From Bacteroidaceae bacterium (GTDB taxonomy: Bacteria > Bacteroidota > Bacteroidia > Bacteroidales > Bacteroidaceae), in contig JAGABW010000011.1 in the NCBI GenBank assembly GCA_017614465.1, positions 253-64,252 of the forward strand: a stretch of 64,000 bases of DNA, read 5' to 3'. A program made the position numbers and the translations under genes. This document shows positions 3,026 through 17,600 of this stretch, piece by piece. The first letter of the stretch is position 1; each line of letters begins with the position of its first letter. A model generated the notes under the pieces. The model was given only the letters and a program-made list of their open reading frames with translations, had not been told where the DNA came from and searched no databases.

Positions 3026-3119
3026 AAATATCTGAAATGGCAGACATTCTTACACCATTCTGTAATGTGTATAGTCTGAATTCTAATCATTGTTTACCGC
3101 TGGCATCACACTGATGTCT

Positions 3120-4529
3120 TTATCGGCATTTTAAACGACGTTGATAATTCATTTTTCCATTCTCGAGTGCATCAAACAGCAGTTTTCCAAGAACTGCCCC
3201 TCCTTTGAAGTTTATATGTGTGTAATCCAGATTGGCTAACCCTTCACGTTGCATTTTGGCAGTACTTCCAGACCCACCCATCGCTTGTTGCAGATTCCAA
3301 AAAGCCACATGCTCCTCTTGCGCCATCTGTCGTTGTGCAGCAACCAGTTCTGTAACACCTTTCATGGTCTCAAACTGGCCATTAGCCCCTCGTTTGTCCC
3401 TGTTACTTACACTGACAATGAGGATACTTGTTTTAGGATATGCCTTACGGAAATTATGAATTCCTTTTTTAAACTTATCGCAATATGCATAATAGCCTTG
3501 TCGGGTTGGAGTTGACATGTTCAAGCCATAATGCATTATTATAAGATCATAATGACGTAGTTTGGCAAAATCTGTCAAGGTCTCAACTGGGATAGTTGAC
3601 AAATGCCAACCAACACTACCACGCATAGAGAAATTATCCACTACAACACCTTTTGTTCCCTCTAAAGCTAAACCATAGAAGCGACCGCCTCCACTTACAT
3701 CTGCTGTGAAACTACCGATTTTGCCTTTATAGACATCTGATTTCAGACCTAAGCTGATATTCTGAACTGAATCCGACAATGAATCAGGCTTATTCTGGCC
3801 GTGTGATGCCACACATTTTGTTTCCTTACCATTGATTGATGCCACTATATTGGTGTTCACATCTGGGGTATAGAACAATGTTACCTGATCTACACTATCA
3901 AGATGTTCCGGGAATACTCGTTGCTGTCCACGCACATTTATACGTGCACCTGAATTTGGGATATAATAACGTGAATTTATTCCTTGTAATGCAGAATTAA
4001 AGCCTTTTCCACGATCTATCACACTATAATCCTGCCATCCGCTGCTGTTTTCAATAACAGTGGTACGGAATCCTGCAACCTGTGAATGAATATCGATGAA
4101 ACCGACACCGCAACCACCATATTGTGTCTGCAGATAATCGCGCAAATTGGCTGTAAAGATATCACCCTCGATGAATGAATCGCCGAAATAGGCAATGCGG
4201 ACAACTCGTTTCTTTGTGTTGCCGAGAGCCTCATAGAAAGAATCCATCTCACGGTCAATCATCATCGAATCACGAAAATCCTCGATAGGAATCATTCCTT
4301 CTGGCACAGAATCGGTTTTGGCAACGACTTTTAGGCGTTCCAATCTTATAGAATCCTCATATTGTTGTGCTTGTTCCGCTTCTTTCTGTTCTGCGTCAGA
4401 GTTTGATCTCACATCCGACAATATATCAACCTTACGGAGTTGTACTCCGAAAACAGTCAATGGAGACAAATAATACATTGCCCCAAGAACCGCCACAACA
4501 ATCAATGTGAGTATAAATGTACGTTTCAC
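3120..4529 (-). CDS. SGNH/GDSL-type hydrolase or acyltransferase partner of the MBOAT protein
   Basis: N-terminal signal anchor, GDS block (IAYFGDSFIEGD), and position immediately downstream of the MBOAT gene. Confidence 0.65.
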   Translation of the reverse strand: MKRTFILTLIVVAVLGAMYYLSPLTVFGVQLRKVDILSDVRSNSDAEQKEAEQAQQYEDSIRLERLKVVAKTDSVPEGMIPIEDFRDSMMIDREMDSFYEALGNTKKRVVRIAYFGDSFIEGDIFTANLRDYLQTQYGGCGVGFIDIHSQVAGFRTTVIENSSGWQDYSVIDRGKGFNSALQGINSRYYIPNSGARINVRGQQRVFPEHLDSVDQVTLFYTPDVNTNIVASINGKETKCVASHGQNKPDSLSDSVQNISLGLKSDVYKGKIGSFTADVSGGGRFYGLALEGTKGVVVDNFSMRGSVGWHLSTIPVETLTDFAKLRHYDLIIMHYGLNMSTPTRQGYYAYCDKFKKGIHNFRKAYPKTSILIVSVSNRDKRGANGQFETMKGVTELVAAQRQMAQEEHVAFWNLQQAMGGSGSTAKMQREGLANLDYTHINFKGGAVLGKLLFDALENGKMNYQRRLKCR

Positions 4530-4563
4530 TTAAATATTCTCTTTTATTGCTTTCAAAAAAAGG

Positions 4564-5076
4564 TTATTCGTCAACCACTGGAAAATGTAGGCTGGAAAGA
4601 ACCTTTTTCACATATGGTCCGCACATAGGTTTCATTTCCCGAAGATACTTAACTGTAACTTCTGCGTAATAATCATCCTTCCATATCACACGACGATAAA
4701 AATGATAACCATTTTCAATTCCTGAAATATCAAATCCATCCTTACGAAGTTTAGAACTCTTTAATTCCACCCCGCTGCTAACATATCGATTAATAGTTTC
4801 TTTATATGAATCTGATAATGATTTGGAAAAAATATTCATATCGTTGAATCCTCCAAACACAATTATACAGGCCTTTTCTGCGTTAGCTCCTTTCATCTTA
4901 ATTGTCACGCCGTCCTTTGCCATCGGTTCTTCACCTGCAGTCATGAAATCGGGATAACTTACAACATAACCATAACGATCATTAAAATAAGTTTTCATCG
5001 ACTGAGCATTTATTTTCCCAACGAAAACAAACGCAGCAACAATTACTATTGTAAAAAACTGTCTTAGGAAATTCAT
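4564..5076 (-). CDS. hypothetical secreted protein
   Basis: 170 aa ORF with a signal peptide (VAAFVFVGKINAQS). No recognisable motif. Confidence 0.6.
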   Translation of the reverse strand: MNFLRQFFTIVIVAAFVFVGKINAQSMKTYFNDRYGYVVSYPDFMTAGEEPMAKDGVTIKMKGANAEKACIIVFGGFNDMNIFSKSLSDSYKETINRYVSSGVELKSSKLRKDGFDISGIENGYHFYRRVIWKDDYYAEVTVKYLREMKPMCGPYVKKVLSSLHFPVVDE

Positions 5077-5300
5077 CGATAATTTATATTGTGCATATTC
5101 GTTGCAAAGTTACGAAATATTTAGCATTTTACAACATACAACAATCAAATTATTATATTTTACATAAAAACTTAAGTTTTTATAAACCAAATCATCTTAT
5201 ATCGTTGATTATCGACTATGGATAAATTCGGGAAATGCTGTCATATAAACACTATTAATCCGAATAATCCATAACGGAGAATCAACAGACGAGGATATCT

Positions 5301-5336
5301 AATAAAAGTTCTCGCACCAGCAAGGCACGAGAACTT
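5301..5336 (-). terminator. intrinsic terminator downstream of 5383..6378
   Basis: 9-bp stem AAGTTCTCG/CGAGAACTT, followed on the minus strand by TTTTATT. Confidence 0.6.
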
Positions 5337-5382
5337 CTATCATTTATGATTCTTATTTACTTTATCAGGATAAAAAACGTTT

Positions 5383-6378
5383 TTAACTATATAAATCTAC
5401 AATTTCATAGAATTCTTTCTTACCCGATTTTCCACCAAAATCATATCCTTTCAATGGAGTTATCTCATACAGGTTCTTTCCTTTATCGTCTTTAGTTGCC
5501 ATTTTGAAAGAGCCTTTTATGTTTACACGACTTTCATCCACAGTGTAAGGTTCATCACCAAGAACATCCTTCAAATCAAAGTGATATCCATATTCGGACT
5601 CATCGTTAAGACCATCATACTCTGAGCACCAGAACTTACCTTTGTATCTGTATTCCAGAATCTCGCCGGCAATACCGACTTCATATGTTATCTTCCAATC
5701 AGAAGTAAAAGTAAAAAGTTTACTATATGGTTTGCCGTCCTCCTCGTATTCTTTCATTATCATTTTCGGACCGTAAAAAAGAGATATCTCTTCTCTCTCA
5801 CCTTTACCATTGACTGCAACAATGCCTTGATGATCCATAAAATTATCGTCCAAATCATCAAAATCACTTTCTTTCAACACATCGAAGCCTTTAATATCAC
5901 GAAAACCATGTAATGCGCCAGATGTCTCAAAATCTCCATTTTCTACTGCCAGGAACACGTCCAAGATCTCTACAGTTCCGTCGTCCATCAACATACACAG
6001 TACTGGATGATAATCCTGACCGATATCTTTCATGAAAACACTTACGACCGTATCGCCCTTGGTCTCAACCATACGTGGTTCTGTACCTACATGCCACTGA
6101 TCCTCGTCGATTCCTAAAAAACGTATTGCTTCGGGAATATTGAATGACAATTCAACCTTTCCATCTTTTATCGTTGCTCTGTATGACCACGAATCGCCAT
6201 CCATACATCCATATTCACATTCAGTCTGTAAATCAAACTTTACAGCAGGCAACGTGTCTTTTACTGAGACCTCAGTAGAGTCGCTATCGCCTGTGTTGCC
6301 ATTGTTCTGTCCTGTACATGCGCAACATAGCACACAGGTCATCAAGATGAATATCTGAATCTGTTTAGAAAACCTCAT
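5383..6378 (-). CDS. hypothetical acidic lipoprotein
   Basis: 331 aa with signal peptide plus Cys (LCCACTGQ). Asp/Glu-rich; no recognised domain. Confidence 0.65.
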   Translation of the reverse strand: MRFSKQIQIFILMTCVLCCACTGQNNGNTGDSDSTEVSVKDTLPAVKFDLQTECEYGCMDGDSWSYRATIKDGKVELSFNIPEAIRFLGIDEDQWHVGTEPRMVETKGDTVVSVFMKDIGQDYHPVLCMLMDDGTVEILDVFLAVENGDFETSGALHGFRDIKGFDVLKESDFDDLDDNFMDHQGIVAVNGKGEREEISLFYGPKMIMKEYEEDGKPYSKLFTFTSDWKITYEVGIAGEILEYRYKGKFWCSEYDGLNDESEYGYHFDLKDVLGDEPYTVDESRVNIKGSFKMATKDDKGKNLYEITPLKGYDFGGKSGKKEFYEIVDLYS

Positions 6379-6395
6379 AATAGTCCTTTTTTATA

Positions 6396-6821
6396 TTAGC
6401 GTTTGAAGAAATCAAAGAAAAAAAACAAAGCCGCATAACGTTGATCCACGCCTTTTGCTGAACCTATACACGAATTACTTCCGTTACGTACGGTTCCATC
6501 AGAACAAACCCTACCAATCATTGAGTTTGAGCCGTTACGCACGGTGCCGTCTCGTTCCACCCGTCCTATTGCAGAGTTGGAACCATTACGTACAGTTCCG
6601 TCGCTGTCAAGTTTTCCAACACGTGAGTTAGACGAGTTTCTTATTGTTCCATCTCGTTCAATCTTTCCTATTGTAGAATTTGAACTGTTACGCACTGTGC
6701 CATCACTTTCAATCCTACCGATATACGCATTTGACTGATTGCGCAAGTCTTGTGCTTTAACAACATCTGCCGACAGAAGCATTACACCAAGAATCAGTAG
6801 AAAGAATTTAATTCGTTTCAT
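6396..6821 (-). CDS. secreted tandem-repeat protein (17-aa repeat SNSxIGRxExDGTVRNG)
   Basis: Signal peptide followed by five full and one partial 17-aa repeats. The antisense ORF 6544..6738 is a repeat artefact. Confidence 0.75.
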   Translation of the reverse strand: MKRIKFFLLILGVMLLSADVVKAQDLRNQSNAYIGRIESDGTVRNSSNSTIGKIERDGTIRNSSNSRVGKLDSDGTVRNGSNSAIGRVERDGTVRNGSNSMIGRVCSDGTVRNGSNSCIGSAKGVDQRYAALFFFFDFFKR

Positions 6822-8368: not shown

Positions 8369-8517
8369 AGTTTTAATAGTTTAAATATTTAAATATAAAG
8401 ATTAATAATCGTAATTACTATTGTAAAAAATATTACATACTTGCGACAAAGGTAAATATTATTATCCAAACTACCAATTTATAACCAATATTTGTTAACA
8501 AACACAAAAAAATGATA

Positions 8518-8553
8518 ACATAAAAGGTTGGATTCTTAACTTAGAAGCCAACC
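8518..8553 (-). terminator. intrinsic terminator ending the propeller gene array
   Basis: Minus strand GGTTGGCTTCT-AAGTTA-AGAATCCAACC followed by TTTTAT. Near-identical module at 13554..13587. Confidence 0.7.
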
Positions 8554-8581
8554 TTATCGTTTACTCAACTTGTGATTTCAT

Positions 8582-9703
8582 CTACGAATCCAACAAGTCA
8601 TCAAGTCTTTTATATTTCAAAATCTGTTCTGTCTCAGTATTATTACGTAAAAAATACATATATCCGTCTTTTGAAATGCCAAAACTGGTTATAGTAAATG
8701 GCACATTAACCTTTAATATAGGATTACCGTCCCAATCAAACACCATTAACGAACAAGTTTGCTTATCATCCGAGGTCTCGTAATCTTTATAACTTACACC
8801 ATGATATAACGCCACAAAATAATCAGAATAGGAAACAACCCCGCCAAAACACTTCAACATTGAACCACGTGAGAACATTGAAGTACCAGATTTATCAACC
8901 GCATTTACATCCATCAGCGCATCACCAATGCATAATGTCTTTTTGAACGTACCATCAAAAGAATACAAGTTAATCTGATTCAGTCGCAGCATCGCCTCAG
9001 CTATTCTTTGGTGATCAGGGCTTAAACTATATAAATATGAGATTGTATTTATATCATTCTCAACTCGAAAATCATTAAGAGTCTCAATTCCTGATATATC
9101 TTGGAAAGAATTTCCTGATAACAACTTACGATTATATTTATTATATCCTAATAATAAGTCTGAATAATAGTAAATAGAGTCGTCTAACCTTGACATCCAA
9201 CGACAAGATTGCATTTCAACATTCGGAGTGATATCTGTTATCGAATCATTACCAAGCAACAAGCTCTGTGTCAGATTACATCGGTATAAATGATTCTTAT
9301 TCGTCATGAACTCACAATATAAATTCTTATCATCACATTTAAAAGTCAAAGAAGACGGTGGAGACGAGAACTCATTATGACCATGTCCCTTTCTTATCAG
9401 CCAAGTCTTAAACTGATTATCATTTAGCGAATATATCTTCCAATAATAATCTGCTCCCGTGAAAGCACACACCAACAAACTATCATATATAAACATGTTA
9501 CTACAGCCTTCAATTCCTGTACAAACATTCTGCAAGTCTTTTTCCGACACATCTACGGTTCTTGTAAACGTTATATTTTCCACATCCTCAAAACACATAT
9601 ATGATTCAGGAAGATGATTACAACATCCCAGGAAAAAACACACCCCAATTAGAGATACGATTTTAGTTATAAATCTCAAATGTATATATATAGTATTTAT
9701 CAT
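8582..9703 (-). CDS. 6-bladed beta-propeller-type lipoprotein, paralogue P1
   Basis: Lipobox FFLGCC and a KGHGHNEF motif matching the GxGxxE[YF] motif shared by the paralogues. Overlaps P2 by 41 nt (17 nt if the TTG at 9679 is used). Confidence 0.7.
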   Translation of the reverse strand: MINTIYIHLRFITKIVSLIGVCFFLGCCNHLPESYMCFEDVENITFTRTVDVSEKDLQNVCTGIEGCSNMFIYDSLLVCAFTGADYYWKIYSLNDNQFKTWLIRKGHGHNEFSSPPSSLTFKCDDKNLYCEFMTNKNHLYRCNLTQSLLLGNDSITDITPNVEMQSCRWMSRLDDSIYYYSDLLLGYNKYNRKLLSGNSFQDISGIETLNDFRVENDINTISYLYSLSPDHQRIAEAMLRLNQINLYSFDGTFKKTLCIGDALMDVNAVDKSGTSMFSRGSMLKCFGGVVSYSDYFVALYHGVSYKDYETSDDKQTCSLMVFDWDGNPILKVNVPFTITSFGISKDGYMYFLRNNTETEQILKYKRLDDLLDS

Positions 9704-10799
9704 TGCTATTAGGTTTTATGTTTACTCCATAAAATTTATTATTATCTCCACTAAAAAATTGAATTATCCCTTGAATTCTTTCCTCTGCAACCAAGTCATA
9801 TGTTTTTCTATCATAAAACTGAAGTGATGTATAAGATTGTGCATCATCCATAATCTTATGAAAGCACGAACGCATGATATACTTATTGGTACATACTAGA
9901 GAAGAATTCAGGCTAACTCGCTTTATATCATCACTCATATATTCGTTATCAGCCTGATAAGAATAACTTCTATCCGCGTTTTGAAATTCATAGCCAAAAG
10001 TATATAAAACTGATTTCATGTCATTGTCATATACATATATTAATGAATCTACGGTATGACACACCATATATTCTTCTCCACATGGAACAGATCGGAAGTT
10101 CTCAAAATTAGGGGCCATATTATCTAAGTAATAATGAGGATAACTACCAAATAACTCCACAAATTTATTTCCGTCCAAGCTATATCTGCCCCATATACGA
10201 CCTTCTTTGTAACGGTTTTCATCTACACGAGAGAGATGCCTATCAACAATTGATAATGGTAAAATTACTTCATGATTGTCATTGATATATGCATCCATTC
10301 CACAATCTGTCATACTCATAACTACATATACGCTGGGAGAGGAGAAGTCATCCTTTTGAATCTCATCCTTCGCAAAATCAATTCTTCCCCTGTATTCAAT
10401 CGTATCACTCTCTGTATTATATATATACATAAACAAAGAAGCATCTATAATACAAATACGTTTTTCGTCATTAGCAAAAGGATAAGCATACATAAAACTT
10501 GGAATTTCCGTCTTGGCGTGACCTTTCGTTAGCATGCTGCCAATCAAAGAACCACTATTCTTATCGAATTTGAAGATTCTACAATAATATTTATCAGCAA
10601 AACCTATATAATCTTTTGTAGCAAAGAAATTTCCATCCCAACTAATACTGTCGGCGGATATTAAAACCGAATCTAATTTATGATGATAAGAAGTAAACTG
10701 CTTTACTCCCTTATGTATAAAAGATTGTCTATTTTGACAAGATATTACAAACTGAGAGATTACTATAACAAAAACGATAAACCTTGAAATCTTATTCAT
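9663..10799 (-). CDS. 6-bladed beta-propeller-type lipoprotein, paralogue P2 (motif degenerate)
   Basis: Lipobox FVISCQN. Similar length and layout to the neighbours; motif degraded to KGHAKTEI. Confidence 0.65.
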   Translation of the reverse strand: MNKISRFIVFVIVISQFVISCQNRQSFIHKGVKQFTSYHHKLDSVLISADSISWDGNFFATKDYIGFADKYYCRIFKFDKNSGSLIGSMLTKGHAKTEIPSFMYAYPFANDEKRICIIDASLFMYIYNTESDTIEYRGRIDFAKDEIQKDDFSSPSVYVVMSMTDCGMDAYINDNHEVILPLSIVDRHLSRVDENRYKEGRIWGRYSLDGNKFVELFGSYPHYYLDNMAPNFENFRSVPCGEEYMVCHTVDSLIYVYDNDMKSVLYTFGYEFQNADRSYSYQADNEYMSDDIKRVSLNSSLVCTNKYIMRSCFHKIMDDAQSYTSLQFYDRKTYDLVAEERIQGIIQFFSGDNNKFYGVNIKPNSNDKYYIYTFEIYN

Positions 10800-10893
10800 A
10801 AAACACTACAATTAATATTTACTGATAACCTATCATATTCACAACTTAAACATAAAACGCCCCATGAGCCGTATCATCTTTTTCATCCGTAGC

Positions 10894-11910
10894 TTATTTT
10901 AAATGATATTTCAATAATACTATATCATAATCACCTGCAGGCTCATTGCCAAGCATTTTATCACTAATAGCGTATAGATTATTTTTATGTAGGGCAACAG
11001 GAATAAACGGGAACAGGTTTGGAGTTTTCACTGTTCCACAATATGATTTTCCTGCAAGTCTGTCATATACATTGATCAACGTATAATCATTATTTATATA
11101 TGGAGTAAATACATACTTTTGAGCGACGAAGGATTGTCCTTTTGAATATATACCAACTGCTGCTTTTTTCTCCGAACTCAATTTGTAGTCCTTATCGGAT
11201 TCAACTCCGAAATCTAATCCATACAGAGCCGTCATCTGATTATTTTTCCATTCGTATATTGTATCCGAAATGGTTTCTAAAGCATAGACCCGACCTTCGC
11301 CATCATCACTAAATACACATGTACTTTCAATGTGATCCAGTTCCATTTTAGGTTTCACATACGTGTTTATCAGCGTTCCCTCCAAATCAACATGTAATAC
11401 AGACTTTAAGTCATTATACCCGCCTGCATTCCACAAAAGAAATCCATCTGGCACTTTTATAAAATCAAACGTATGAATCGGAATTGTTATTTGTCCCTGA
11501 TAGTTCAATGAATAATCATATTTCAATATCAACGAGGCCGCCATATCAAGAACATACAAGTATTCACCATCTATAGAAACAGACATTGGTTCAATATATT
11601 CGCCGGCACCATGCCCAACACGTTGTATCTGTTTAATTAAATGACCATCCTTCGTATTATACACAAAAAGCGATTTCATGTCATCTAATATAAATATTAA
11701 TGAATCATTTACACATGCTTTTCTTATCCTCGACAAAGGGATTTCTCCTTTTTCCAAAACCACAGAATCAACAGACTGGGTAAATACTGTATAATCAATT
11801 CCACTGTTACTATCTATTGATGGGTCTATTGGAATATTTGTCATGGTATCATGCTTCACATCACATGCTGTTAGCAATATCAGCATTATCAATAATAACT
11901 TCTCTTTCAT
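10894..11910 (-). CDS. 6-bladed beta-propeller-type lipoprotein, paralogue P3
   Basis: Lipobox LLTACDV and a VGHGAGEY motif preceded by FVYNTKDGHLI, typical of the BF3164/DUF5128-like family as I recall it. Confidence 0.7.
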   Translation of the reverse strand: MKEKLLLIMLILLTACDVKHDTMTNIPIDPSIDSNSGIDYTVFTQSVDSVVLEKGEIPLSRIRKACVNDSLIFILDDMKSLFVYNTKDGHLIKQIQRVGHGAGEYIEPMSVSIDGEYLYVLDMAASLILKYDYSLNYQGQITIPIHTFDFIKVPDGFLLWNAGGYNDLKSVLHVDLEGTLINTYVKPKMELDHIESTCVFSDDGEGRVYALETISDTIYEWKNNQMTALYGLDFGVESDKDYKLSSEKKAAVGIYSKGQSFVAQKYVFTPYINNDYTLINVYDRLAGKSYCGTVKTPNLFPFIPVALHKNNLYAISDKMLGNEPAGDYDIVLLKYHLK

Positions 11911-11936
11911 ATATATAATTTTAAGTAAGTGACAAG

Positions 11937-12040
11937 ATTTGACTTTACAGTCGGTGTTTAACTTTTCTCATGCACATGCTATAATGATAAACATGATTAA
12001 GCTTTGGGTGTCAGACTTATGGTAAAGAATGTTTTATTTT
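11937..12040 (-). repeat. conserved leader element, copy A (core only)
   Basis: 103/104 identical to 16137..16240 (single mismatch at 11967 versus 16167). Lies between P4 and P3 and supplies the last 7 codons and the stop of P4. Confidence 0.95.
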
Positions 12041-13168
12041 AGAAATTACAATCAAAGGATTATCAGATTCCTGATATTCATTAATAATCTGTTCATTTCT
12101 TTTATTAGCAAGCTCTATCTTATAATTGCGTTTCTGTGCTCCTTCTTTATAATGCTTTATTAATGAAGGGGAGACAACCATCGCAACAGTATTTGAAAGC
12201 CCTCCTACTGGATAAATCAAGGAACTAACCAAAGGAAATTCCTCATCATGTAACTCCAAACTCAAAATCGCTCTACGCGTTTCTTTAACTGCACTTACTA
12301 ATCCCGCTTCATTGGTATTAAATAAAAGCAAAGAATCTGAAGCTACAATATTATAGATCATCCATATCTTATTATCATTGTAATTGAAAAAAGAATTTAA
12401 ATTTAAGTTTTTGGATTCACCATAATCAAACCATCTATCACCAAAATTAATCGAGTTTTCCGATAAAATCTTTGTATCCCGTATCGAATATATTTTGTTT
12501 GAAAATGGCAAAGCAACCCAACAATTTTTGTCATCACTAGTCATCCATTTTCCAAGCCCCCATATTCCTTTAATAAATTCATTTTGGGTTAATAATACTT
12601 GATATTCACCACAAGGATTATGTTTATCAAATCTTCTTAACTCCATACCATTATCATCAGAAGACAGACATAATGCATATAAACTATTTCCTGAAATCGC
12701 TATTTCAAAATAGTATTCATTAAGTTGATATGTATTTATCCGATTTAGGTTCATATCAAATGTCATCATTCTATACGGAGCATCAAAATATACATATAAT
12801 ACCCCCTCATTAGGATCTATAGCAGCATCAAATATTCTTATATACTCATCTTTACCTTTACCGATGAGAGACTCTGTGGACTTTATAAAATTGCCATCAT
12901 TATCATAACATAACAACTTATTATTTTTTCTATCAACAATAAATATTCTATCATTAGATGCCAATATTCTCCATACATTGCCGATAATAGACTCAGAATC
13001 CATTGAAGATGGCTTTACAACACGAGTACTATCCAATAAGGATGATTTATCAATACATTCTATATAATTAACTACCATTTCATTAATGGGTTCTTGTATC
13101 GTACGACACGACGCCATACATAAAAGAAGCATTAATACATAGAATATGTTTTTACCATAAGTCTTCAT
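12017..13168 (-). CDS. 6-bladed beta-propeller-type lipoprotein, paralogue P4
   Basis: Lipobox CMASCRT and an IGKGKDEY motif preceded by LCYDNDGNFI. Confidence 0.7.
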   Translation of the reverse strand: MKTYGKNIFYVLMLLLCMASCRTIQEPINEMVVNYIECIDKSSLLDSTRVVKPSSMDSESIIGNVWRILASNDRIFIVDRKNNKLLCYDNDGNFIKSTESLIGKGKDEYIRIFDAAIDPNEGVLYVYFDAPYRMMTFDMNLNRINTYQLNEYYFEIAISGNSLYALCLSSDDNGMELRRFDKHNPCGEYQVLLTQNEFIKGIWGLGKWMTSDDKNCWVALPFSNKIYSIRDTKILSENSINFGDRWFDYGESKNLNLNSFFNYNDNKIWMIYNIVASDSLLLFNTNEAGLVSAVKETRRAILSLELHDEEFPLVSSLIYPVGGLSNTVAMVVSPSLIKHYKEGAQKRNYKIELANKRNEQIINEYQESDNPLIVISKIKHSLP

Positions 13169-13291
13169 CGAATGAGTTTTTATTTGTTAATAATTAATCT
13201 ATAAGATATTATTATGTATATATGTATATTTTATTAATTATTATATTTGTAATTTCGATTATGATTAACATTACAAATATCTTTTAACAAG

Positions 13292-13549
13292 TTTGATCGG
13301 CATTTTTCATATTGAAGTTTGCCAAGGATTTGACTTTACAGTCGGTGTTTAACTTTTCTCATGACTTCATGCTATAACGCAGGGACATGATTAAGCTGTA
13401 GGGTTAGACTTATGGTAAAGAAATTAGGGAATTCAAAACCATAAAGACTTGTCGATTATGCTTTAAAAGCAAACCGACGGTAAAACTAAATAAAAAGAAA
13501 ATAGCATCCAAATTTTTTAACAGAAAAATTAATAAAAATCTTTATTTTT
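13292..13549 (-). repeat. conserved leader element, copy B (long form, diverged)
   Basis: Aligns over about 260 bp with 16102..16359. The core runs about 13323..13422 and starts gccaaggatttgactttacagtcggtgtttaacttttctcatg. Lies upstream of P4. Confidence 0.9.
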
Positions 13550-13553
13550 TTGC

Positions 13554-13587
13554 AAAAAAGGTTGGATTCCTAACCTAGAACCCAACC
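13554..13587 (-). terminator. intrinsic terminator after the peptide/P5/thioredoxin-like unit
   Basis: Minus strand GGTTGGGTTCT-AGGTTA-GGAATCCAACC (11-bp stem including G-U pairs) followed by TTTTTT. Confidence 0.7.
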
Positions 13588-13897
13588 TTATCGTTTACTC
13601 GGTATGTGATTTCTTCTATAATTTCTTATTATTGTTTATATTTTATTATTGGTGTCCGCTAAAAAAGAATTCAAAGTGCTTACTTTTGGAAAAAAGCATA
13701 AAAAGTTGCCAAATAACAATCCTCATAAGGATATATCTAACCGTCAAAAGTATTTAGCGGACAAAATATAAAAAAGTATTATGATAATTCTGCAGAGTCA
13801 ATATGCAACTATTAATGCATGGCACTGCAACTAAAAACATAGAAACCGCATCACGACTCCGACTAAAAGTAGTATAACACAGTTTTTTCCCCTCTTA

Positions 13898-14446
13898 TTA
13901 CTTATGTTCTTTCAAGACAGACAACAAAAGATCACCTATTTTAGCATTTGAAATAGGATTTCCAAGGACTTTAACGTTTCCTTGTTTATCAATCATAAAA
14001 CTTTCGTACAACGAAGATTTAATAAACATCGGATTATTTTTAGAAAACACATCTGCCGTATCTACATAAGTAATCGGTAAATATTTCGAATAATACTTAA
14101 CACGTTTAAGGTATTTTATAGTAGATCTATTCCCTGATACAACTATACATATATTATATAACGAATCTATTTCTTTCGCTTTATTTTCAAATTCATGCAA
14201 ACGAACTAACTTATTAGATAAGCATGACGAACACCGTAAAGAATCAAAATATAATACATGAATATAATTTGTTTTATCCAACCAATTTGAATCTTCACCA
14301 ACAAATATCATCTTATTTACTTGTAAATTAATAGGAGTGGAAATAAATTGTTTAATTTGTTCATCTTGAGAATTACAAGAACACATACTTTTCATAACTA
14401 CTATTAAAATACAGAATATATTATATCTATTTTTAAGAATATCCAT
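13898..14446 (-). CDS. thioredoxin-fold (TlpA/redoxin-like) lipoprotein with CSSC motif
   Basis: Lipobox SMCSCNS. HVLYFDSLRCSSCLSNKL gives a beta-CxxC-alpha layout. C-terminal FMIDKQGNVKVLGNP is typical of redoxin folds. Starts 8 nt after the P5 stop. Confidence 0.65.
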   Translation of the reverse strand: MDILKNRYNIFCILIVVMKSMCSCNSQDEQIKQFISTPINLQVNKMIFVGEDSNWLDKTNYIHVLYFDSLRCSSCLSNKLVRLHEFENKAKEIDSLYNICIVVSGNRSTIKYLKRVKYYSKYLPITYVDTADVFSKNNPMFIKSSLYESFMIDKQGNVKVLGNPISNAKIGDLLLSVLKEHK

Positions 14447-14454
14447 ACCTCAGT

Positions 14455-15552
14455 TTATTTTATATGCCAATACAATACAGGATTATGTCCCGATTCAATG
14501 GTTTTGTTTTTCACCAAATCATCATTTATATTATCCGCTTGAACTACTTCAATAAATCCTTCAGATGTTGAATATTCGATTGGGTACTCCATACAACGTC
14601 CTAACTTTGAATCTATAACATGCATATATGGATAAAACTGACTCTCTAATGTAGTTTTATTAAACACAGACAAACATGGCATGTTTTTATCAAAACAAAC
14701 AATCCAAGCATAATCTGCATTTTCAGTTATATATTTTATATTTCCCCGACTATTAGCCAATCTTTCTTTGGTTTCATTACGGTCCAAACCTTTAACATCA
14801 TCATAAACTATATTGTTATTTCCAAAATCAATTTGATATAATATATCCAAACTATTATCCTCATTAATCTTATAAACATTATTGTCTAAATATCTATGAT
14901 ATGATAAATAACCATCAGGTGTTTTTTGAAATGGGTGAACCTCAACATGATCAATTCTATCATTATTTGTAAAATAATTCATTAGCACATGCAATTTTTC
15001 ATTTGTAACAACCAATTCACCCACATTATAATCAGTAGTCATAAAATAAAAACACCTATTTAAATATTCCATATTTTCGGCATAAAACGGTATTTCCCGT
15101 TTTTCAGTTAGTTTTCCATCAAAAGTATATGTATACACATTCTTGCGATTACAAAGGGCATAAATTAATTTGTTTTCTTCATCTATATTGAAATCACTTA
15201 TTGATATATATTCATTATGTCCACTTCCGATTTCTCCTATCTCACACAGAAATTTTCCTGTATTTACACTAAAGCACATCATCTTTCTGGCCAAATCTTT
15301 ATCTAATATAAACAATAAAGAATCAGAAATGACAATTTTATCTATATTACCAATCTTGGATTTCTCAGTTTCCTCTAATTTTAACATTTCAGATTTACTA
15401 AAAAATGATTGAATGTCTAAACTATCAGTTTCATTTAGTAGACTACAATCCCATTCATATTTTGCCATCTTAGGTTGTGTTGTGTTTGAATTACAAGAAT
15501 ATATAAACACCACAGCCAAAACAATCATTATATAGGTTAATTTTGATTTCAT
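14455..15552 (-). CDS. 6-bladed beta-propeller-type lipoprotein, paralogue P5
   Basis: Lipobox FIYSCNS and an IGSGHNEY motif preceded by FSVNTGKFL. Confidence 0.7.
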   Translation of the reverse strand: MKSKLTYIMIVLAVVFIYSCNSNTTQPKMAKYEWDCSLLNETDSLDIQSFFSKSEMLKLEETEKSKIGNIDKIVISDSLLFILDKDLARKMMCFSVNTGKFLCEIGEIGSGHNEYISISDFNIDEENKLIYALCNRKNVYTYTFDGKLTEKREIPFYAENMEYLNRCFYFMTTDYNVGELVVTNEKLHVLMNYFTNNDRIDHVEVHPFQKTPDGYLSYHRYLDNNVYKINEDNSLDILYQIDFGNNNIVYDDVKGLDRNETKERLANSRGNIKYITENADYAWIVCFDKNMPCLSVFNKTTLESQFYPYMHVIDSKLGRCMEYPIEYSTSEGFIEVVQADNINDDLVKNKTIESGHNPVLYWHIK

Positions 15553-15630
15553 GTTGTCTGTATTATAATCGGTTATATAAAAGAATAAATAGAAATATCA
15601 AATAAATCTTTATTCTATAATTCATACTAT

Positions 15631-15668
15631 ATACCTATCGGCAATAGGTGAATTATGCCGATAGGTAT
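15631..15668 (-). terminator. strong hairpin (possible partial terminator/attenuator) between the peptide gene and P5
   Basis: Perfect 13-bp inverted repeat ATACCTATCGGCA/TGCCGATAGGTAT with a 12-nt loop, 21 nt after the peptide stop. There is no clean U-run. Confidence 0.5.
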
Positions 15669-15689
15669 AATTAAATTAAAGTTCAATTA

Positions 15690-15986
15690 CTAACAATTTT
15701 TTCCACACTCACAAGTTTTATCACCTGGTGTATAACAAGGATTGCACGGACCATTCTCTTCACATGCACGATAGTCGCCAGTACCAACTCCTGGACAATC
15801 ATGAATTTGAGACCAAGCATATTTGGTCATTGCGGCAGCATCACCACCATCATCACTTAAAGCTTCAATATTCTCAGACATTAATGTACTTTCTTTAACA
15901 CTATATGCATCATACGCCTTAATGCCACCAAAGCCAGCAGCAACAACAGCAAATGCAAACATCGCAGTTTTTATAACTTTTTTCAT
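15690..15986 (-). CDS. small Cys-rich secreted/anchored peptide with NVEALA-like motif (98 aa)
   Basis: MKKVIKTAMFAFAVVAAGFGG... hydrophobic N-terminus, then SENIEALSDDGG, then a C-terminal 35 aa with 7 Cys. The track ORF starts at 16067, but that 27-aa extension precedes a canonical MKK signal start. Confidence 0.75.
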   Translation of the reverse strand: MKKVIKTAMFAFAVVAAGFGGIKAYDAYSVKESTLMSENIEALSDDGGDAAAMTKYAWSQIHDCPGVGTGDYRACEENGPCNPCYTPGDKTCECGKNC

Positions 15987-16101
15987 AATTAAATTTTGAT
16001 TTTTATTAATATTATTTGGGGACCTTTTCGGTCGGTATCCATCCTCTACCGGTACTGAGAATGGCATATCTCATGAAATATGTTTTCTTGATTTTTAATG
16101 A

Positions 16102-16359
16102 TTTGATTGGCATTTTCATAATGATTATTGCCAAGGATTTGACTTTACAGTCGGTGTTTAACTTTTATCATGCACATGCTATAATGATAAACATGATTAA
16201 GCTTTGGGTGTCAGACTTATGGTAAAGAATGTTTTATTTTATTCTATTCCATAAAGACTTGTTTGATTATGCTTTAAAAGCAAACCGACGGCAAAACTAA
16301 AAAAAAAAAAAAATAGCATCCAAATTTTTTAACAGAAAAATTAAAAAAATCTTTATTTT
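16102..16359 (-). repeat. conserved leader element, copy C (long form) upstream of the peptide gene
   Basis: Core 16137..16240 is 103/104 identical to copy A. The flanks align with copy B. Confidence 0.95.
16292..16324 (-). promoter_or_regulatory. candidate Bacteroidetes sigma-A-type promoter with poly(T)15 spacer
   Basis: Minus strand reads TTTG (16324-16321), a 21-nt spacer GATGCTA+T14, then TAGTTTTG (16299-16292), matching -33 TTTG / -7 TAnnTTTG. Confidence 0.45.
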
Positions 16360-16384
16360 CTGGGGGTAAGTATTTTGCATAACA

Positions 16385-16420
16385 AGAAAAAGAGCTCTTA
16401 TCACACTCGATAAAAGCTCT
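16385..16420 (-). terminator. possible terminator of the sigma/anti-sigma operon
   Basis: Minus-strand stem AGAGCT/AGCTCT followed by TTTTCTTGTT. Confidence 0.4.
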
Positions 16421-16609
16421 ATTCCTTAGTTACACAATAGTAACCCAAATAAATTAGTTTGAAAGAAAAAAACTTCACAGTTTCAACTTTCCGCGGTTTT
16501 AGTTAAAGCATATAAAAGAAAATGATTGTTAATTGACAATTTAAAAAGTTACTGCCGGATTTTTCAGGAATGAATCAGTCCTTATGGAGAGTTCTTCCAA
16601 CAAATCCAC

Positions 16610-17101
16610 TTACCTCCTTGTTATATCATCAACCTGTACTGTATCGGCTTTTGCCATTGATTCAGACTGATTTCGGTCGATAATATGGATGGTTGCAGTT
16701 ATATCTTCTGTACGGGTGTAGGTATCTGCTATAGAAGGCGCACCTGCATTATCCCCAACAGAATTGTCCTGCATTGTTCGTTCTGCGACATTTCCAATTG
16801 TGAGTGCAATGGCCACTACCGCTGCAGCTTTAAACAATGGAGTTATGCGTGAGACAAATTTTATGGTTTTAGCCTCTACAGCAGGTTCTTCATCCACCAT
16901 ATCAAGCATTCTTTGCTTGAAATCATCACTCAAACATTCTTGTGCTGCTTCACTCTCATAACTGAAAAGATCGGCATACTGCTGAAGATGTTCTGGTACA
17001 TCATGTTGCTTGAAGAAAGAATGCAGGATCTGTTCCTCCTCCAAAGTTGTCTCGCATTGCCAGTAGCGTTCGAGAAGTTGTTCGATGTACTTATAATCCA
17101 T
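16610..17101 (-). CDS. putative anti-sigma factor (single-pass membrane protein)
   Basis: 163 aa with one TM (LFKAAAVVAIALTIGNV). Overlaps the 3' end of the ECF sigma gene by 11 nt. Confidence 0.55.
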   Translation of the reverse strand: MDYKYIEQLLERYWQCETTLEEEQILHSFFKQHDVPEHLQQYADLFSYESEAAQECLSDDFKQRMLDMVDEEPAVEAKTIKFVSRITPLFKAAAVVAIALTIGNVAERTMQDNSVGDNAGAPSIADTYTRTEDITATIHIIDRNQSESMAKADTVQVDDITRR

Positions 17102-17600
17102 TTTTTTGTTTTTTAAGTTGTTCTTTTAACTGTTGTCTTGCTCTGAAAAGTGTTACTTTTACATCTGCCAGACTTATATTCATCATTAAAGATATTTCTT
17201 GGTAGTTTCGGCCTTCGATGTCTCTCAACTGAATGACTGTCCTTTGTTTCTCAGGCATTCTGTTAATCAGTTCGTTTATAATCTCATACCTTTGATTGTA
17301 TATTAATCGTTCATCGGGCATGTGCTGATTATCGAATCCGTCAACTCCGCTATCTTCGAGAGAGATGTTTTTGTTTTCATGCTTTGCGTTGTGGTCAAGT
17401 GCCTGGTTTCTGCAGACTGTCATCGCATAAACGGTGAGATTATCTACTTCCTTCAGTTTCTCGCGCCCTTCCCAAAGTTTGATCAGTGTATCTTGCACGA
17501 CATCTTCTGCTTCTTGCTTGTTGCACGTAATTCGCAACGCAAGCCTGTAGAGTTTATCTCCAAGTGGCAATATGTCGTTCTTGAAACTGATCTCTTTCAT
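17091..17600 (-). CDS. ECF-type RNA polymerase sigma-70 family factor
   Basis: Region 2 (AEDVVQDTLIKLW) and region 4 (QRTVIQLRDIEGRNYQEISLMMNISLADVKVTLFRARQQL). Confidence 0.85.
   Translation of the reverse strand: MKEISFKNDILPLGDKLYRLALRITCNKQEAEDVVQDTLIKLWEGREKLKEVDNLTVYAMTVCRNQALDHNAKHENKNISLEDSGVDGFDNQHMPDERLIYNQRYEIINELINRMPEKQRTVIQLRDIEGRNYQEISLMMNISLADVKVTLFRARQQLKEQLKKQKNGL

Follow-up and report, generated by a model that had tools for sequence, protein, structure and literature searches.

The window analysed here is a stretch of 64,000 nucleotides from an uncultured gut Bacteroidaceae, a species that carries a strain-variable island of cassettes. The island spans positions 8518–17600 and has a GC content of 27–34%, compared with 38–43% in its flanks, in agreement with the AT-richness reported in a preliminary description of this DNA. 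All genes listed there were found as stated, on the minus strand and in the same order, together with the three leader copies and the hairpins; no further island ORF of at least 50 aa fits a transposase or an integrase, neither of which had been seen before. The features, from high to low coordinates, are as follows.

17091–17600, minus strand: ECF sigma factor, PG0214/GFO_1088 equivalog (NF058625, 178 bits; cut-off 130)
16610–17101, minus strand: anti-sigma-like membrane protein, beside the ECF sigma factor
16391–16420: terminator-like hairpin, recovered by the hairpin scan
16292–16325, minus strand: peptide-cassette promoter, with TTTG at 16321–16324, a 21-nt spacer and TAGTTTTG at 16292–16299
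15987–16291, minus strand: leader L1, about 305 nt, non-coding and conserved, 5' of the peptide gene
15690–15986, minus strand: precursor peptide, 98 aa (also 98 aa in the NCBI call)
15630–15669, minus strand: perfect 14-bp stem-loop, downstream of the peptide gene and upstream of P5 (fold z = -5.5)
14455–15552, minus strand: P5, 365 aa, NHL-type six-bladed beta-propeller lipoprotein (PF17170, 139 bits)
13898–14446, minus strand: CSSC thioredoxin-fold lipoprotein (redoxin), 182 aa
13554–13589, minus strand: terminator hairpin with T-run, closing the triad; a copy recurs after P1
13169–13512, minus strand: promoter and leader copy L2, upstream of P4 (nhmmer E = 8e-78)
12017–13168, minus strand: P4, 383 aa, orphan propeller lipoprotein (PF17170, 62 bits)
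11936–12041, minus strand: leader copy L3, 106 nt, 5'-truncated (from repeat D2 and alignment)
10894–11910, minus strand: P3, 338 aa, orphan propeller lipoprotein (PF17170, 102 bits)
9663–10799, minus strand: P2, 378 aa, divergent propeller-like lipoprotein
8582–9703, minus strand: P1, 373 aa, TolB-like propeller (PF15869, 53 bits)
8519–8584, minus strand: terminator-hairpin repeat (D3), closing the island

The N-terminus of the precursor peptide is signal-like (MKKVIKTAMFAFAVVAAGFGG); its pro-region closes with ENIEALS (residues 38–44) and gives way to a 54-aa core with seven Cys residues. Conservation is high at the end of the pro-region (N39, 0.92; A42, 0.97; L43, 0.91; S44, 0.75) and lies below 0.4 beyond residue 44; across the family it stops exactly at N-x-E-A-L-S/A, past which the cores are hypervariable, Cys-rich and unalignable, with four as the commonest Cys count and no strong bias toward even numbers. 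Specifically, the core family of the window peptide shares the motif WS..DCPG..GDY.VC..NG.GN.C..PG..TC.CG.NC with six conserved Cys residues, the window allele having an odd number (7) versus 8 in the alleles of other strains. The AF2 model of this core reaches a pLDDT of 84–95. The HMM check sustains the proposed NVEALA assignment: the window peptide scores 25.2 bits, just below the Pfam cut-off of 27, and 17 of the 23 homologues sharing its core match Pfam NVEALA.

The promoter of the peptide cassette fits the Bacteroides -33/-7 consensus of the primary-sigma type (TTTG / TAnnTTTG), and its 21-nt spacer contains a T15 tract (16299–16313) whose length varies among orthologous copies (15, 13, or T10AT3). 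An equal architecture lies upstream of all leader copies; the L2 version has an interrupted T tract and TAGTTTTA as its -7 element. L1 and L2 are full copies, each with a promoter, and L3, 99% identical to L1, lies ahead of P3 and shares positions with the 3' end of P4. The 31-nt leader core occurs three times in the window versus 0.00 expected by chance. L1 matches the leader copies of other loci and genomes with nhmmer E values of 1e-69 to 1e-85, its folding exceeds that of shuffled sequences (z = -3.6), and Rfam has no family for it; apparent uORFs and an antisense ORF of L1 show no conservation of frame. The leader is a clade-wide conserved element, which doubles as a recombination breakpoint. 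The stem-loop at 15630–15669 is a candidate attenuator or RNA-stabilising 3' hairpin, and seven of the eight loci tested have a hairpin of similar strength but unrelated sequence at the corresponding position after the peptide gene. The two terminator copies belong to repeat D3 (13553–13618 versus 8519–8584, 86% identity).

As for the five paralogues described as propeller lipoproteins, the HMM check places P5, P4, and P3 in DUF5128 and P1 in TolB_like; P2 has no Pfam match and is weakly tied to the family by hhalign (E = 9e-5, probability 59%). Searches with the propeller profile hit NHL repeats (E down to 1e-30) and PDB entry 4raa. Invariant positions other than the start Met are limited to G109 and E114, and the lipobox Cys comes close. 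The GxGxxE[YF] motif is confirmed in four propellers (GHGHNEF, GHGAGEY, GKGKDEY, and GSGHNEY) and is degenerate in P2 (GHAKTEI). The start of P1 is ambiguous, since the 373-aa form, which bears the lipobox, shares 41 nt with P2, and the NCBI call is 333 aa. P5 is the cognate propeller of the peptide cassette, and shares 31–33% identity with the propellers beside the same core family at two other loci (L016 and L028).

The redoxin has no match to any Pfam or NCBIfam model, and its lipobox, SMCSC, is atypical. The CxxC motif is invariant among 19 homologues, and the AF2 model adopts a beta-CxxC-alpha topology at modest confidence (pLDDT 63), with Etrx1, ResA, CcmG, and TlpA-like proteins as the best Foldseek matches (E = 2e-5 to 1e-3). 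The model is thus thioredoxin/TlpA-like, as had been claimed, although without a Pfam match, and we propose that this lipoprotein is a DsbA/MauD-like partner.

The functional unit is a triad comprised of an NVEALA-leader peptide, an NHL-type six-bladed propeller lipoprotein (DUF5128), and a CxxC thioredoxin-fold lipoprotein. This order was found in 7/7 independent context look-ups and also in leader-anchored loci; the co-occurrence suggested earlier recurs in every context examined. The genomic sites are unrelated, one lying inside the trp operon between trpG and trpD and another on the Phocaeicola vulgatus plasmid pPvulCL10_1, annotated as NVEALA protein and 6-bladed beta-propeller; the same system is present in cultured human-gut Bacteroidales, and is open to testing there. 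Related "master" loci add a MauE (DsbB-like oxidase), a dedicated S26 signal peptidase, and a TolC/RND exporter. Specifically, MauE with a CGCF active-site motif adjoins triads at three loci (L014, L018, and L027), the S26 paralogue keeps its motifs intact (SMYPT, KR, and GDN..SxDSR), and the same loci encode an OEP and an RND pump with adaptor. The 64-kb window contains no MauE, S26 peptidase, or exporter; from the sister locus L027 and a contig break in strain RUI502, we infer that the window's genome does encode them.

Among strains of the window species, entire cassettes have been gained or lost at this locus, the breakpoints falling at the leader repeats, and four structural variants occur among strains sharing an identical sigma factor. 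P4 is missing in RUI502, where the deletion runs exactly between L3 and L2; locus L030 has lost the peptide core and the redoxin but retains P5 intact; and P1 is largely deleted in both, only its last 40–47 aa being left. P3 is kept at about 99% identity in L031, L030, L034, and RUI502 (L035 ends before P3), as is P2 in L031, L030, and RUI502 (L034 and L035 end before P2). These comparisons demonstrate cassette gain and loss by recombination between leader repeats, and the variants, together with the loss of peptide core and redoxin beside a retained P5, may be read as an arms-race signature. The triad rather than the island as the unit, the clade-wide leader as the breakpoint, and the strain hypervariability are points absent from the preliminary description.

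With a probability of roughly 0.45, we read the island as a cassette stack for exported, disulfide-rich peptides, most likely bacteriocin-like weapons, with the propellers as candidate binding or immunity partners. One cassette is complete, including promoter, 300-nt leader, precursor peptide, hairpin, P5, and thioredoxin-fold lipoprotein. The signal-like N-terminus would take the precursor across the inner membrane, and, judging from related loci, a dedicated S26 peptidase could free the variable core at A-L-S, an Ala-x-Ala-type signal-peptidase site at the end of the pro-region. The CxxC lipoprotein would make the disulfides as a DsbA/MauD-like carrier, and would be re-oxidised by a MauE encoded elsewhere. 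The proposed oxidation of the peptide by the redoxin is strengthened by the MauE, S26, and TolC/RND genes that adjoin triads in related loci and is further backed by published work: MauE replaces DsbB and is proposed to act through a thioredoxin-fold partner (bioRxiv 10.64898/2026.03.05.709764), and production of bacteroidetocins requires a dedicated thiol oxidoreductase, Bacteroides having no general Dsb machinery (PMC6671954), for which reason a dedicated disulfide carrier is needed. Within the envelope, the peptide would be bound by the NHL propeller, which would thereby safeguard the producer and might also act as an escort for the peptide; P1–P4 would be orphan propellers, leftovers or acquisitions of cassette turnover, which plausibly shield against the peptides of other strains. 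Variation of the poly-T tract in the spacer of the promoter is a possible expression switch. Counting against this reading are the odd Cys number and the absence of a strong even-Cys bias, the modest pLDDT of the redoxin model and the redoxin's failure to match Pfam or NCBIfam models, the lack of MauE, S26, and exporter genes in the 64-kb window, and the unusually distant A-L-S site, which lies about 23 residues past the hydrophobic segment, farther than a canonical signal-peptidase site.

A second reading, for which we see perhaps one chance in four, takes propeller and redoxin as a split NHLRC2/SOQ1-like periplasmic foldase, the propeller gripping the NVEALA pro-region and the redoxin forming or shuffling disulfides. 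The product need not be a toxin and could be a signal, an adhesin-like or a metal-binding factor, and the orphan propellers would serve peptides from other loci. Across loci, core and propeller similarities are uncorrelated (rho = 0.01), and in the tandem pair L013a/L013b the cores are unrelated although propellers and redoxins resemble each other; a maturation factor that recognises the leader accounts for this better than an immunity protein specific for the core. Moreover, propeller and redoxin similarities correlate strongly (rho = 0.62, p = 2e-8) as cores swap independently, yet duplication of cassettes as units would alone yield this correlation. The highly conserved leader part of the peptide is expected of a recognition handle, at least six further leader-driven loci in the genome mostly carry NVEALA-type peptides, and the pairing of a thioredoxin-like module with an NHL propeller recurs in nature, the propeller profile giving weak matches to SOQ1. 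However, leader recognition does not require one very divergent propeller per peptide (15–33% identity between propellers of different peptides). Four intact orphan propellers in AT-rich DNA, two of them with a leader copy and one with a full promoter, also argue against it, and the near-identity of P2 and P3 among the covering strains suggests a function independent of an adjacent peptide or redoxin.

It is improbable that the propellers themselves are the payload, as receptors, nutrient binders, or decoys for phage or host immunity, with the NVEALA protein and the redoxin as accessories for their folding or anchoring and with strain variability due to phage or host pressure rather than bacterial warfare. 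The propeller-to-peptide ratio of 5:1 in the window, the hypervariability of the locus among strains, and a hypermutable poly-T stretch in the promoter, a typical feature of phase-variable surface antigens, would fit. However, the residues behind the propellers' lipid-modified Cys show none of the acidic surface-export signal that Bacteroidetes typically use, the anatomy of conserved leader and hypervariable core belongs to the peptide, the terminator-like hairpin favours surplus peptide transcript, and the dedicated S26, TolC, and RND genes suggest export of a small product.

In the window, as in every strain of the species, the sigma/anti-sigma pair is the island's neighbour. That it runs the island as an envelope-stress or signal-response module is very unlikely, since its sigma factor is a PG0214/GFO_1088 equivalog from a broadly conserved family, a terminator-like hairpin separates the pair from the island, the cassette promoter has the primary-sigma consensus, identical promoter-leader units head cassettes at no fewer than ten other sites without a neighbouring sigma gene, and triads of other genera lie in unrelated contexts. 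Identical in all strain variants and absent from triad loci elsewhere, the two genes are a conserved flanking pair outside the cassette system. The earlier interpretation is thus supported for the peptide family, propellers, redoxin, co-occurrence, and oxidation, and is not supported for ECF control.

Our literature search found no paper mentioning these peptide, propeller, or redoxin families, and the cassettes represent an undescribed system that is probably bacteriocin-like. Plant SOQ1 and human NHLRC2 likewise combine, in a compartment that is extracytoplasmic or lumenal, a thioredoxin-fold module and an NHL propeller of six blades; here these are two separate lipoproteins encoded side by side, with no sequence-level orthology apparent. 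The divergent paralogue stacks without a cognate toxin gene, the loss of the toxin part with retention of the partner (L030), and the rapid strain turnover resemble CDI/Rhs orphan immunity arrays and the acquired interbacterial defence islands of Bacteroidales, and the candidate immunity role of the propellers can be set beside lipoprotein bacteriocin immunity of the LanI type; unlike in those arrays, the propeller family has no known immunity role, and core and propeller similarities are loosely coupled. Many paralogous precursors per genome, with near-identical leaders and unrelated cores, recall prochlorosin-type RiPPs, whereas each precursor here has its own partner genes instead of a shared enzyme, and no RiPP modifying enzyme of a known class.

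The MauE/MauD pathway for the methylamine dehydrogenase small subunit likewise combines a membrane MauE with a CXC-F motif (here in related loci, outside the window), a CxxC partner of thioredoxin fold, and a small periplasmic substrate dense in disulfides. In contrast, the CxxC protein here is a lipoprotein outside all Pfam and NCBIfam models, with one copy per peptide cassette, and the substrate is a hypervariable peptide instead of an enzyme subunit. Bacteroidetocins, the class IIf bacteriocins of Bacteroidales (Coyne et al. 2019, PMC6671954), are also small Cys-containing peptides of this order with a thiol oxidoreductase encoded alongside, and the peptides here are predicted to be secreted. 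Bacteroidetocins have a 15-aa double-glycine leader, a C39-peptidase ABC exporter, and a 5-TM protein. Here, the leader instead joins a signal-like segment to an NVEALA pro-region (about 44 aa), and an NHL propeller lipoprotein is always present. None of the loci examined showed a C39/ABC gene; related loci carry S26, MauE, Wzy_C, and TolC/RND in its place.

The ORF map, GC profile, hairpin scan and repeat count of the window agreed with the preliminary description on gene set and order, hairpins, leader copies and AT-richness of the island. Specifically, GC content is 27–34% over 8500–16500 versus 38–43% in the housekeeping flanks, the island being flanked by argB, aroK, topA and a TMEM43-family gene, and the ORF map shows no transposase or integrase in it, as had also been stated. 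The hairpin scan placed a terminator-like hairpin 3' of the anti-sigma gene (16391–16420), and the peptide gene is followed by a hairpin with a perfect 14-bp stem (15630–15669, z = −5.5); such a hairpin stands after the precursor gene in 7/8 loci. The GxGxxE[YF] motif is present in the propeller lipoproteins as described, with a degenerate version in P2.

Features of the island in the window (genes from the ORF map)
17091–17600, minus, ECF sigma factor
16610–17101, minus, anti-sigma-like membrane protein, 163 aa; 11-nt overlap with the sigma gene
16292–16325, minus, cassette promoter: TTTG, 21-nt spacer with T15, then TAGTTTTG
15690–16067, minus, peptide ORF; the 98-aa form begins at 15986
14455–15552, minus, P5, propeller lipoprotein beside the peptide gene
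13898–14446, minus, CSSC protein (redoxin), 182 aa
12017–13168, minus, P4, orphan propeller
10894–11910, minus, P3, orphan propeller
9663–10799, minus, P2, orphan propeller
8582–9703, minus, P1, orphan propeller; start codon uncertain

Copies of a terminator hairpin with its flanks, 86% identical to each other, follow the triad (13553–13618) and P1 (8519–8584), marking cassette ends as the leader marks cassette starts. Additionally, a second AT-rich stretch lies just past the TMEM43 gene (window 4564–6821, ~32–34% GC at 4500–6000), containing two ORFs of 170 and 331 aa without Pfam match and a 5-fold beta-flower protein (PF21785, 103 bits).

Genomic contexts were looked up for seven query proteins, four of them homologues of the peptide and three of the redoxin. 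All seven displayed the identical gene order, a peptide (88–158 aa), a DUF5128 lipoprotein (~365–395 aa) and a CxxC protein (~150–200 aa), in mutually unrelated contexts. On the evidence of gene order, the triad, not the island, is the unit. The expected co-occurrence of peptide, propeller and redoxin genes was thus borne out, both in these look-ups and on pPvulCL10_1, a plasmid of the cultured human-gut strain Phocaeicola vulgatus CL10T00C06 (NZ_CP096966.1; locus L036 6495–10123). There, four consecutive genes encode an "NVEALA domain-containing protein", a "6-bladed beta-propeller" (RefSeq), a 176-aa CYPC-motif protein and a second propeller; the CYPC protein has no detectable sequence similarity to the window redoxin family. 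Propeller matches were also observed on P. dorei and P. massiliensis plasmids. In a Paraprevotella-type genome, an orphan propeller, a peptide, a propeller and a CxxC protein interrupt the tryptophan operon, lying between trpG and trpD (L028 8750–12121; L029 2773–6144).

Larger loci, here termed master loci, combine tandem triads with accessory genes (L027 14257–20597; L014 6483–12474; L018 8510–16507). In L014/L015, L018 and L027 the tandem triads are followed by a 930–955-aa protein with ricin-lectin and transglutaminase-like regions, and next by MauE, an S26 signal peptidase, a Wzy_C/TPR membrane protein and an outer-membrane factor (TolC). An RND adaptor is found in L014, L015 and L018 and an RND pump was called in L014, while L027 stops at the gene for the outer-membrane factor. 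MauE in these loci has an SCGCF motif, and the S26 paralogue retains the catalytic SMYPT, KR and GDN..SxDSR boxes. The Wzy_C protein has a possible link to glycosylation, and directly upstream of the L018 triads a 588-aa TPR protein and a DUF3244 protein (2273–4729) may be regulators or accessory factors. None of the large lectin-like, MauE, S26, Wzy_C and outer-membrane/RND genes occurs in the 64-kb window. Since L027 carries the window's leader element, it is reasonable to suppose that a master locus exists in the window genome, with the island as its satellite.

The peptide had been described as an NVEALA-type protein. The corresponding model, PF14055, has a gathering cut-off of 27 bits, and members are also expected to carry N-V-E-A-L-A downstream of a hydrophobic N-terminal segment. 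In the HMM search the window peptide, whose motif reads ENIEALS, fell short of this cut-off (25.2 bits for the 98-aa version, 23.6 bits for the 125-aa one), but the family placement held for 17 of the 23 homologues sharing its core type (best E = 2.7e-12), and the syntenic P. vulgatus peptide scored 47 bits. An exhaustive HMMER scan gave 98 peptide cluster representatives. Column conservation is high over the signal-like segment, peaks at the motif (N39 0.92, A42 0.97, L43 0.91, S44 0.75) and then collapses, the sequence past S44 consisting of unalignable Cys-rich cores. The peptide leader therein spans ~44 aa with a hydrophobic segment, and only some members have a GG after the motif. A-L-S/A, an Ala-x-Ala-type signal-peptidase motif, is likely the leader/core junction, given this motif type and the dedicated S26 gene in related loci.

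The core sub-family of the window peptide has six conserved cysteines (WS..DCPG..GDY.VC..NG.GN.C..PG..TC.CG.NC). The window allele contains seven cysteines, while the allele of the MAG RUI502, which represents another strain, and the cluster representative P0001 reach eight via different substitutions (R73C and G88C, respectively). The core is predicted with pLDDT 84–95, and a PDB search with the predicted core returned no significant neighbour (best E = 1.8). NCBIfam holds no model for the peptide, the propeller or the redoxin: the only matches were weak ones to ScyF-NHL and a single weak one, from a homologue of the window core family, to "CCPGW family putative bacteriocin" (E = 0.0026). C-P-G-W/L/I is present in many of the peptide cores.

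For the propellers, the proposed family membership was upheld by HMM search in four of the five window proteins. P5, P3 and P4 exceed the gathering cut-off of PF17170 (DUF5128) with 139, 102 and 62 bits, and P1 exceeds that of PF15869 (TolB_like) with 53 bits; P2 has no Pfam match and is linked to the family weakly by hhalign (E = 9e-5). PF17170 was passed by 13 of 16 syntenic propellers. A profile of these 16 proteins searched against the PDB recovered the NHL domains of Thin, TRIM2/3/71 and Brat (E = 1e-30 to 1e-10, with 2–3 repeated matches) and covered the Bacteroides structure 4raa_A over its full length (E = 1.4e-19). Because the profile matches eukaryotic NHL domains as well as full-length 4raa, the propellers are, as judged by profile comparison, NHL-type six-bladed.

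The thioredoxin fold claimed for the CSSC protein is corroborated by structure prediction. The AF2/AlphaFold model, built with 18 homologues, places a strand at 62–67, C72–C75 and a helix at 74–93, i.e. a beta-CxxC-alpha thioredoxin topology at a modest pLDDT of 63, and the top Foldseek matches are all extracytoplasmic TlpA/ResA/CcmG/Etrx-type oxidoreductases (E = 2e-5 to 1e-3). The CxxC is invariant among the homologues, and the lipobox is atypical. No curated sequence model recognises the protein: against Pfam/NCBIfam nothing was found at E ≤ 0.1 except a sub-threshold Phe_hydrox_dim match, and 0/20 homologues contain a Pfam domain.

The cassettes begin with a shared promoter and leader. The promoter, a TTTG / TAnnTTTG one, matches the Bacteroides primary-sigma −33/−7 consensus. 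The 31-nt leader core occurs three times in the window versus 0.00 expected; the copies upstream of the peptide gene (L1) and P4 (L2) comprise full promoter and leader, while the copy upstream of P3 (L3) is a 106-nt, 5'-truncated one that overlaps the P4 end with 99% identity to L1. The promoter and the following ~300 nt are 80–95% identical across at least 8 leader-bearing RUI502 sites and loci of other metagenomes with differing downstream genes, mostly those of NVEALA peptides and sometimes a propeller directly. A wide distribution of the leader was ruled out, since it was found in a single species among 185,579 genome representatives plus 8 short JGI contigs and was not found in the triads of other genera; the leader is clade-specific, the triad is not. 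A phage origin was likewise rejected, as neither the leader nor the redoxin family occurs in viral contigs.

The poly-T tract in the promoter spacer suggests slipped-strand phase variation, with homopolymer assembly error as an alternative source of the length differences. At window 16299–16313 the tract counts 15 in the window and the strain version L031, 13 in L035 and RUI502, and reads T10AT3 in L032. Orthologous or near-identical copies elsewhere differ by 14 vs 15, 17 vs 14 and 12 vs 13; the sites compared besides the window are L008, L035, L032, L001–L003, L011/L024 and L007/L013. As poly-T length differs between copies, the −33/−7 spacing varies, from 17 to 21 nt.

The leader folds better than its shuffles. 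Covariation was not significant because the copies are too alike: RNAalifold on 11 copies, 85% identical, returned 2 covarying pairs only. Two 3' hairpins are 97% paired, yet no better than shuffles (137/500). By eye, stems are kept through changed sequence in both a 5' hairpin (GCUU/AAGC vs GUGU/ACAC and GUGC/GCAU) and a 3' hairpin (CCAUUCUC/GAGGAUGG vs CAAUCG/CGAUUG). No Rfam family matched at gathering score, and a sub-threshold FuFi-1 match antisense to L2 (window 13335–13464, plus strand; 19.5 vs 59.6 bits, E = 0.9) was judged to be chance. Three candidate coding features were rejected. The extra residues of the 125-aa peptide ORF (MPFSVPVEDGYRPKRS...) come from the conserved leader, where other loci show a stop codon or a frame shift, and the NCBI annotation gives 98 aa; a uORF starting from AAATGCCAATCAAATCA has no preserved reading frame and varies in length between 5 and 47 codons; and an antisense ORF, which passes through the variable poly-A/T tract, is broken by a stop codon in the window. 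Judged from these sequence comparisons, the leader is not coding on either strand, and all three are artefacts of its conservation.

To compare strains, we used contigs with an identical sigma factor and examined the region between the anti-sigma and TMEM43 genes, in which four arrangements were observed.

Arrangements between the anti-sigma and TMEM43 genes
Window and L031: peptide triad, P4, P3, P2, P1
RUI502: additional triad beside the anti-sigma gene; P4 lost in a deletion bounded exactly by leader repeats L3 and L2; P1 nearly gone
L030: peptide core and hairpin deleted; redoxin cut to 49 aa; P1 down to 40 aa; P5, P4, P3 and P2 intact at >99%; another triad between P4 and P3
L035: whole peptide–P5–redoxin triad absent; leader directly before P4

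In L030 (11531–13084), a deletion of ~240 nt takes the Cys-rich core and the hairpin, such that P5 now begins 11 nt after the truncated leader peptide, and a second one joins what is left of the redoxin to the sequence upstream of P4. Because the mapped breakpoints, those of RUI502, fall in leader repeats, the leader on this mapping is also a substrate for cassette gain and loss.

We favour, at a probability of roughly 45%, an exported and oxidatively folded peptide that acts in antagonism with immunity, since hypervariable cores, orphan propellers and strain turnover are the usual signature of such systems. At the sequence level, the indirect signs of toxin and immunity comprise the orphan paralogues, the strain-level turnover and the retention of P5 after core loss. 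An exported oxidised peptide would have its parts in the signal-like N-terminus, the pro-region ending at the peptidase motif and the CxxC lipoprotein of each cassette, and master loci may supply further parts in their MauE, S26 and TolC/RND genes. The hairpin after the precursor gene would lead to an excess of peptide transcript.

The propeller role is the main weakness of the antagonism-with-immunity reading. Core similarity is uncorrelated with propeller similarity (rho = 0.01 overall), so strict core–propeller co-variation was discarded, while propeller and redoxin similarity correlate at rho = 0.62; moreover, in the tandem cassettes L013a and L013b similar propellers accompany unrelated cores. 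The same observations speak for propeller and redoxin acting together as a split NHLRC2/SOQ1-like foldase that would recognise the conserved pro-region. We regard this foldase as unlikely. Against it, the window-type core is always accompanied by a P5-like propeller (31–33% identity, versus 15–22% for other propellers) and four intact orphan propellers persist without peptide or redoxin. A surface-variation model of the same cassettes is less likely, to the point of being improbable. Control by the neighbouring ECF sigma factor, raised in the preliminary description, is very improbable and was dropped: the sigma factor belongs, as an equivalog, to the conserved and widespread PG0214/GFO_1088 family, the sigma/anti-sigma pair is linked to the cassettes in the window's species only and is not found near triads elsewhere, and the promoter is of primary-sigma type.

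Extending the antagonism-with-immunity reading, we tentatively propose, as a doubtful whole, that the NVEALA peptide, the DUF5128 propeller and the unmodelled CxxC family constitute a new class of Bacteroidales secreted peptides. Precursors would be exported by Sec, cut by S26 at A-L-A/S, folded via MauE and released through RND/TolC; NHL propellers would provide cognate immunity, with the orphans as a stockpile; and the leader would serve both as a regulatory RNA, downstream of a poly-T promoter subject to phase variation, and as a homology handle shuffling cassettes between loci and strains.

Both Pfam families are already catalogued, and NVEALA and "6-bladed beta-propeller" proteins are annotated in gut Bacteroidales genomes. 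In the full text of about 8 million papers, neither NVEALA nor DUF5128 is mentioned and the accession numbers gave no relevant match; propellers, MauE and S26 are missing from a paper on RiPP mining in Bacteroidales. These annotations now become a testable system with a gene unit, a predicted processing site, a candidate MauE oxidative-folding route and a putative export module, at a locus showing a clear signature of strain-level diversification. As the triad occurs in cultured strains (the P. vulgatus CL10T00C06 plasmid and Paraprevotella xylaniphila), genetics and peptide chemistry are feasible now. If the peptides are antibacterial, they would represent a new Bacteroidales weapon family, distinct from bacteroidetocins, BSAPs and type VI secretion effectors, and the propellers a new immunity fold. 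The poly-T promoter and leader-mediated cassette exchange would add non-inversion diversification to an order best known for invertible promoters.

Among known systems, MauE can replace DsbB, has a CXC active-site motif and probably works with a thioredoxin-fold partner such as MauD (bioRxiv 10.64898/2026.03.05.709764); the MauE with SCGCF that adjoins the triads lies in the master loci and not in the 64-kb window. According to the bacteroidetocin study (PMC6671954), Bacteroides have no general machinery for disulfides, and production of the toxin depends on a thiol oxidoreductase encoded in its locus. The short double-glycine leader and C39-peptidase ABC exporter of bacteroidetocins and class II bacteriocins have no counterpart here, where the leader is ~44 aa and neither the window nor any related locus examined has a C39/ABC exporter gene. 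Bacteroidetocins are the closest characterised system, and what the two have in common is solely the logic of a dedicated thiol oxidoreductase.
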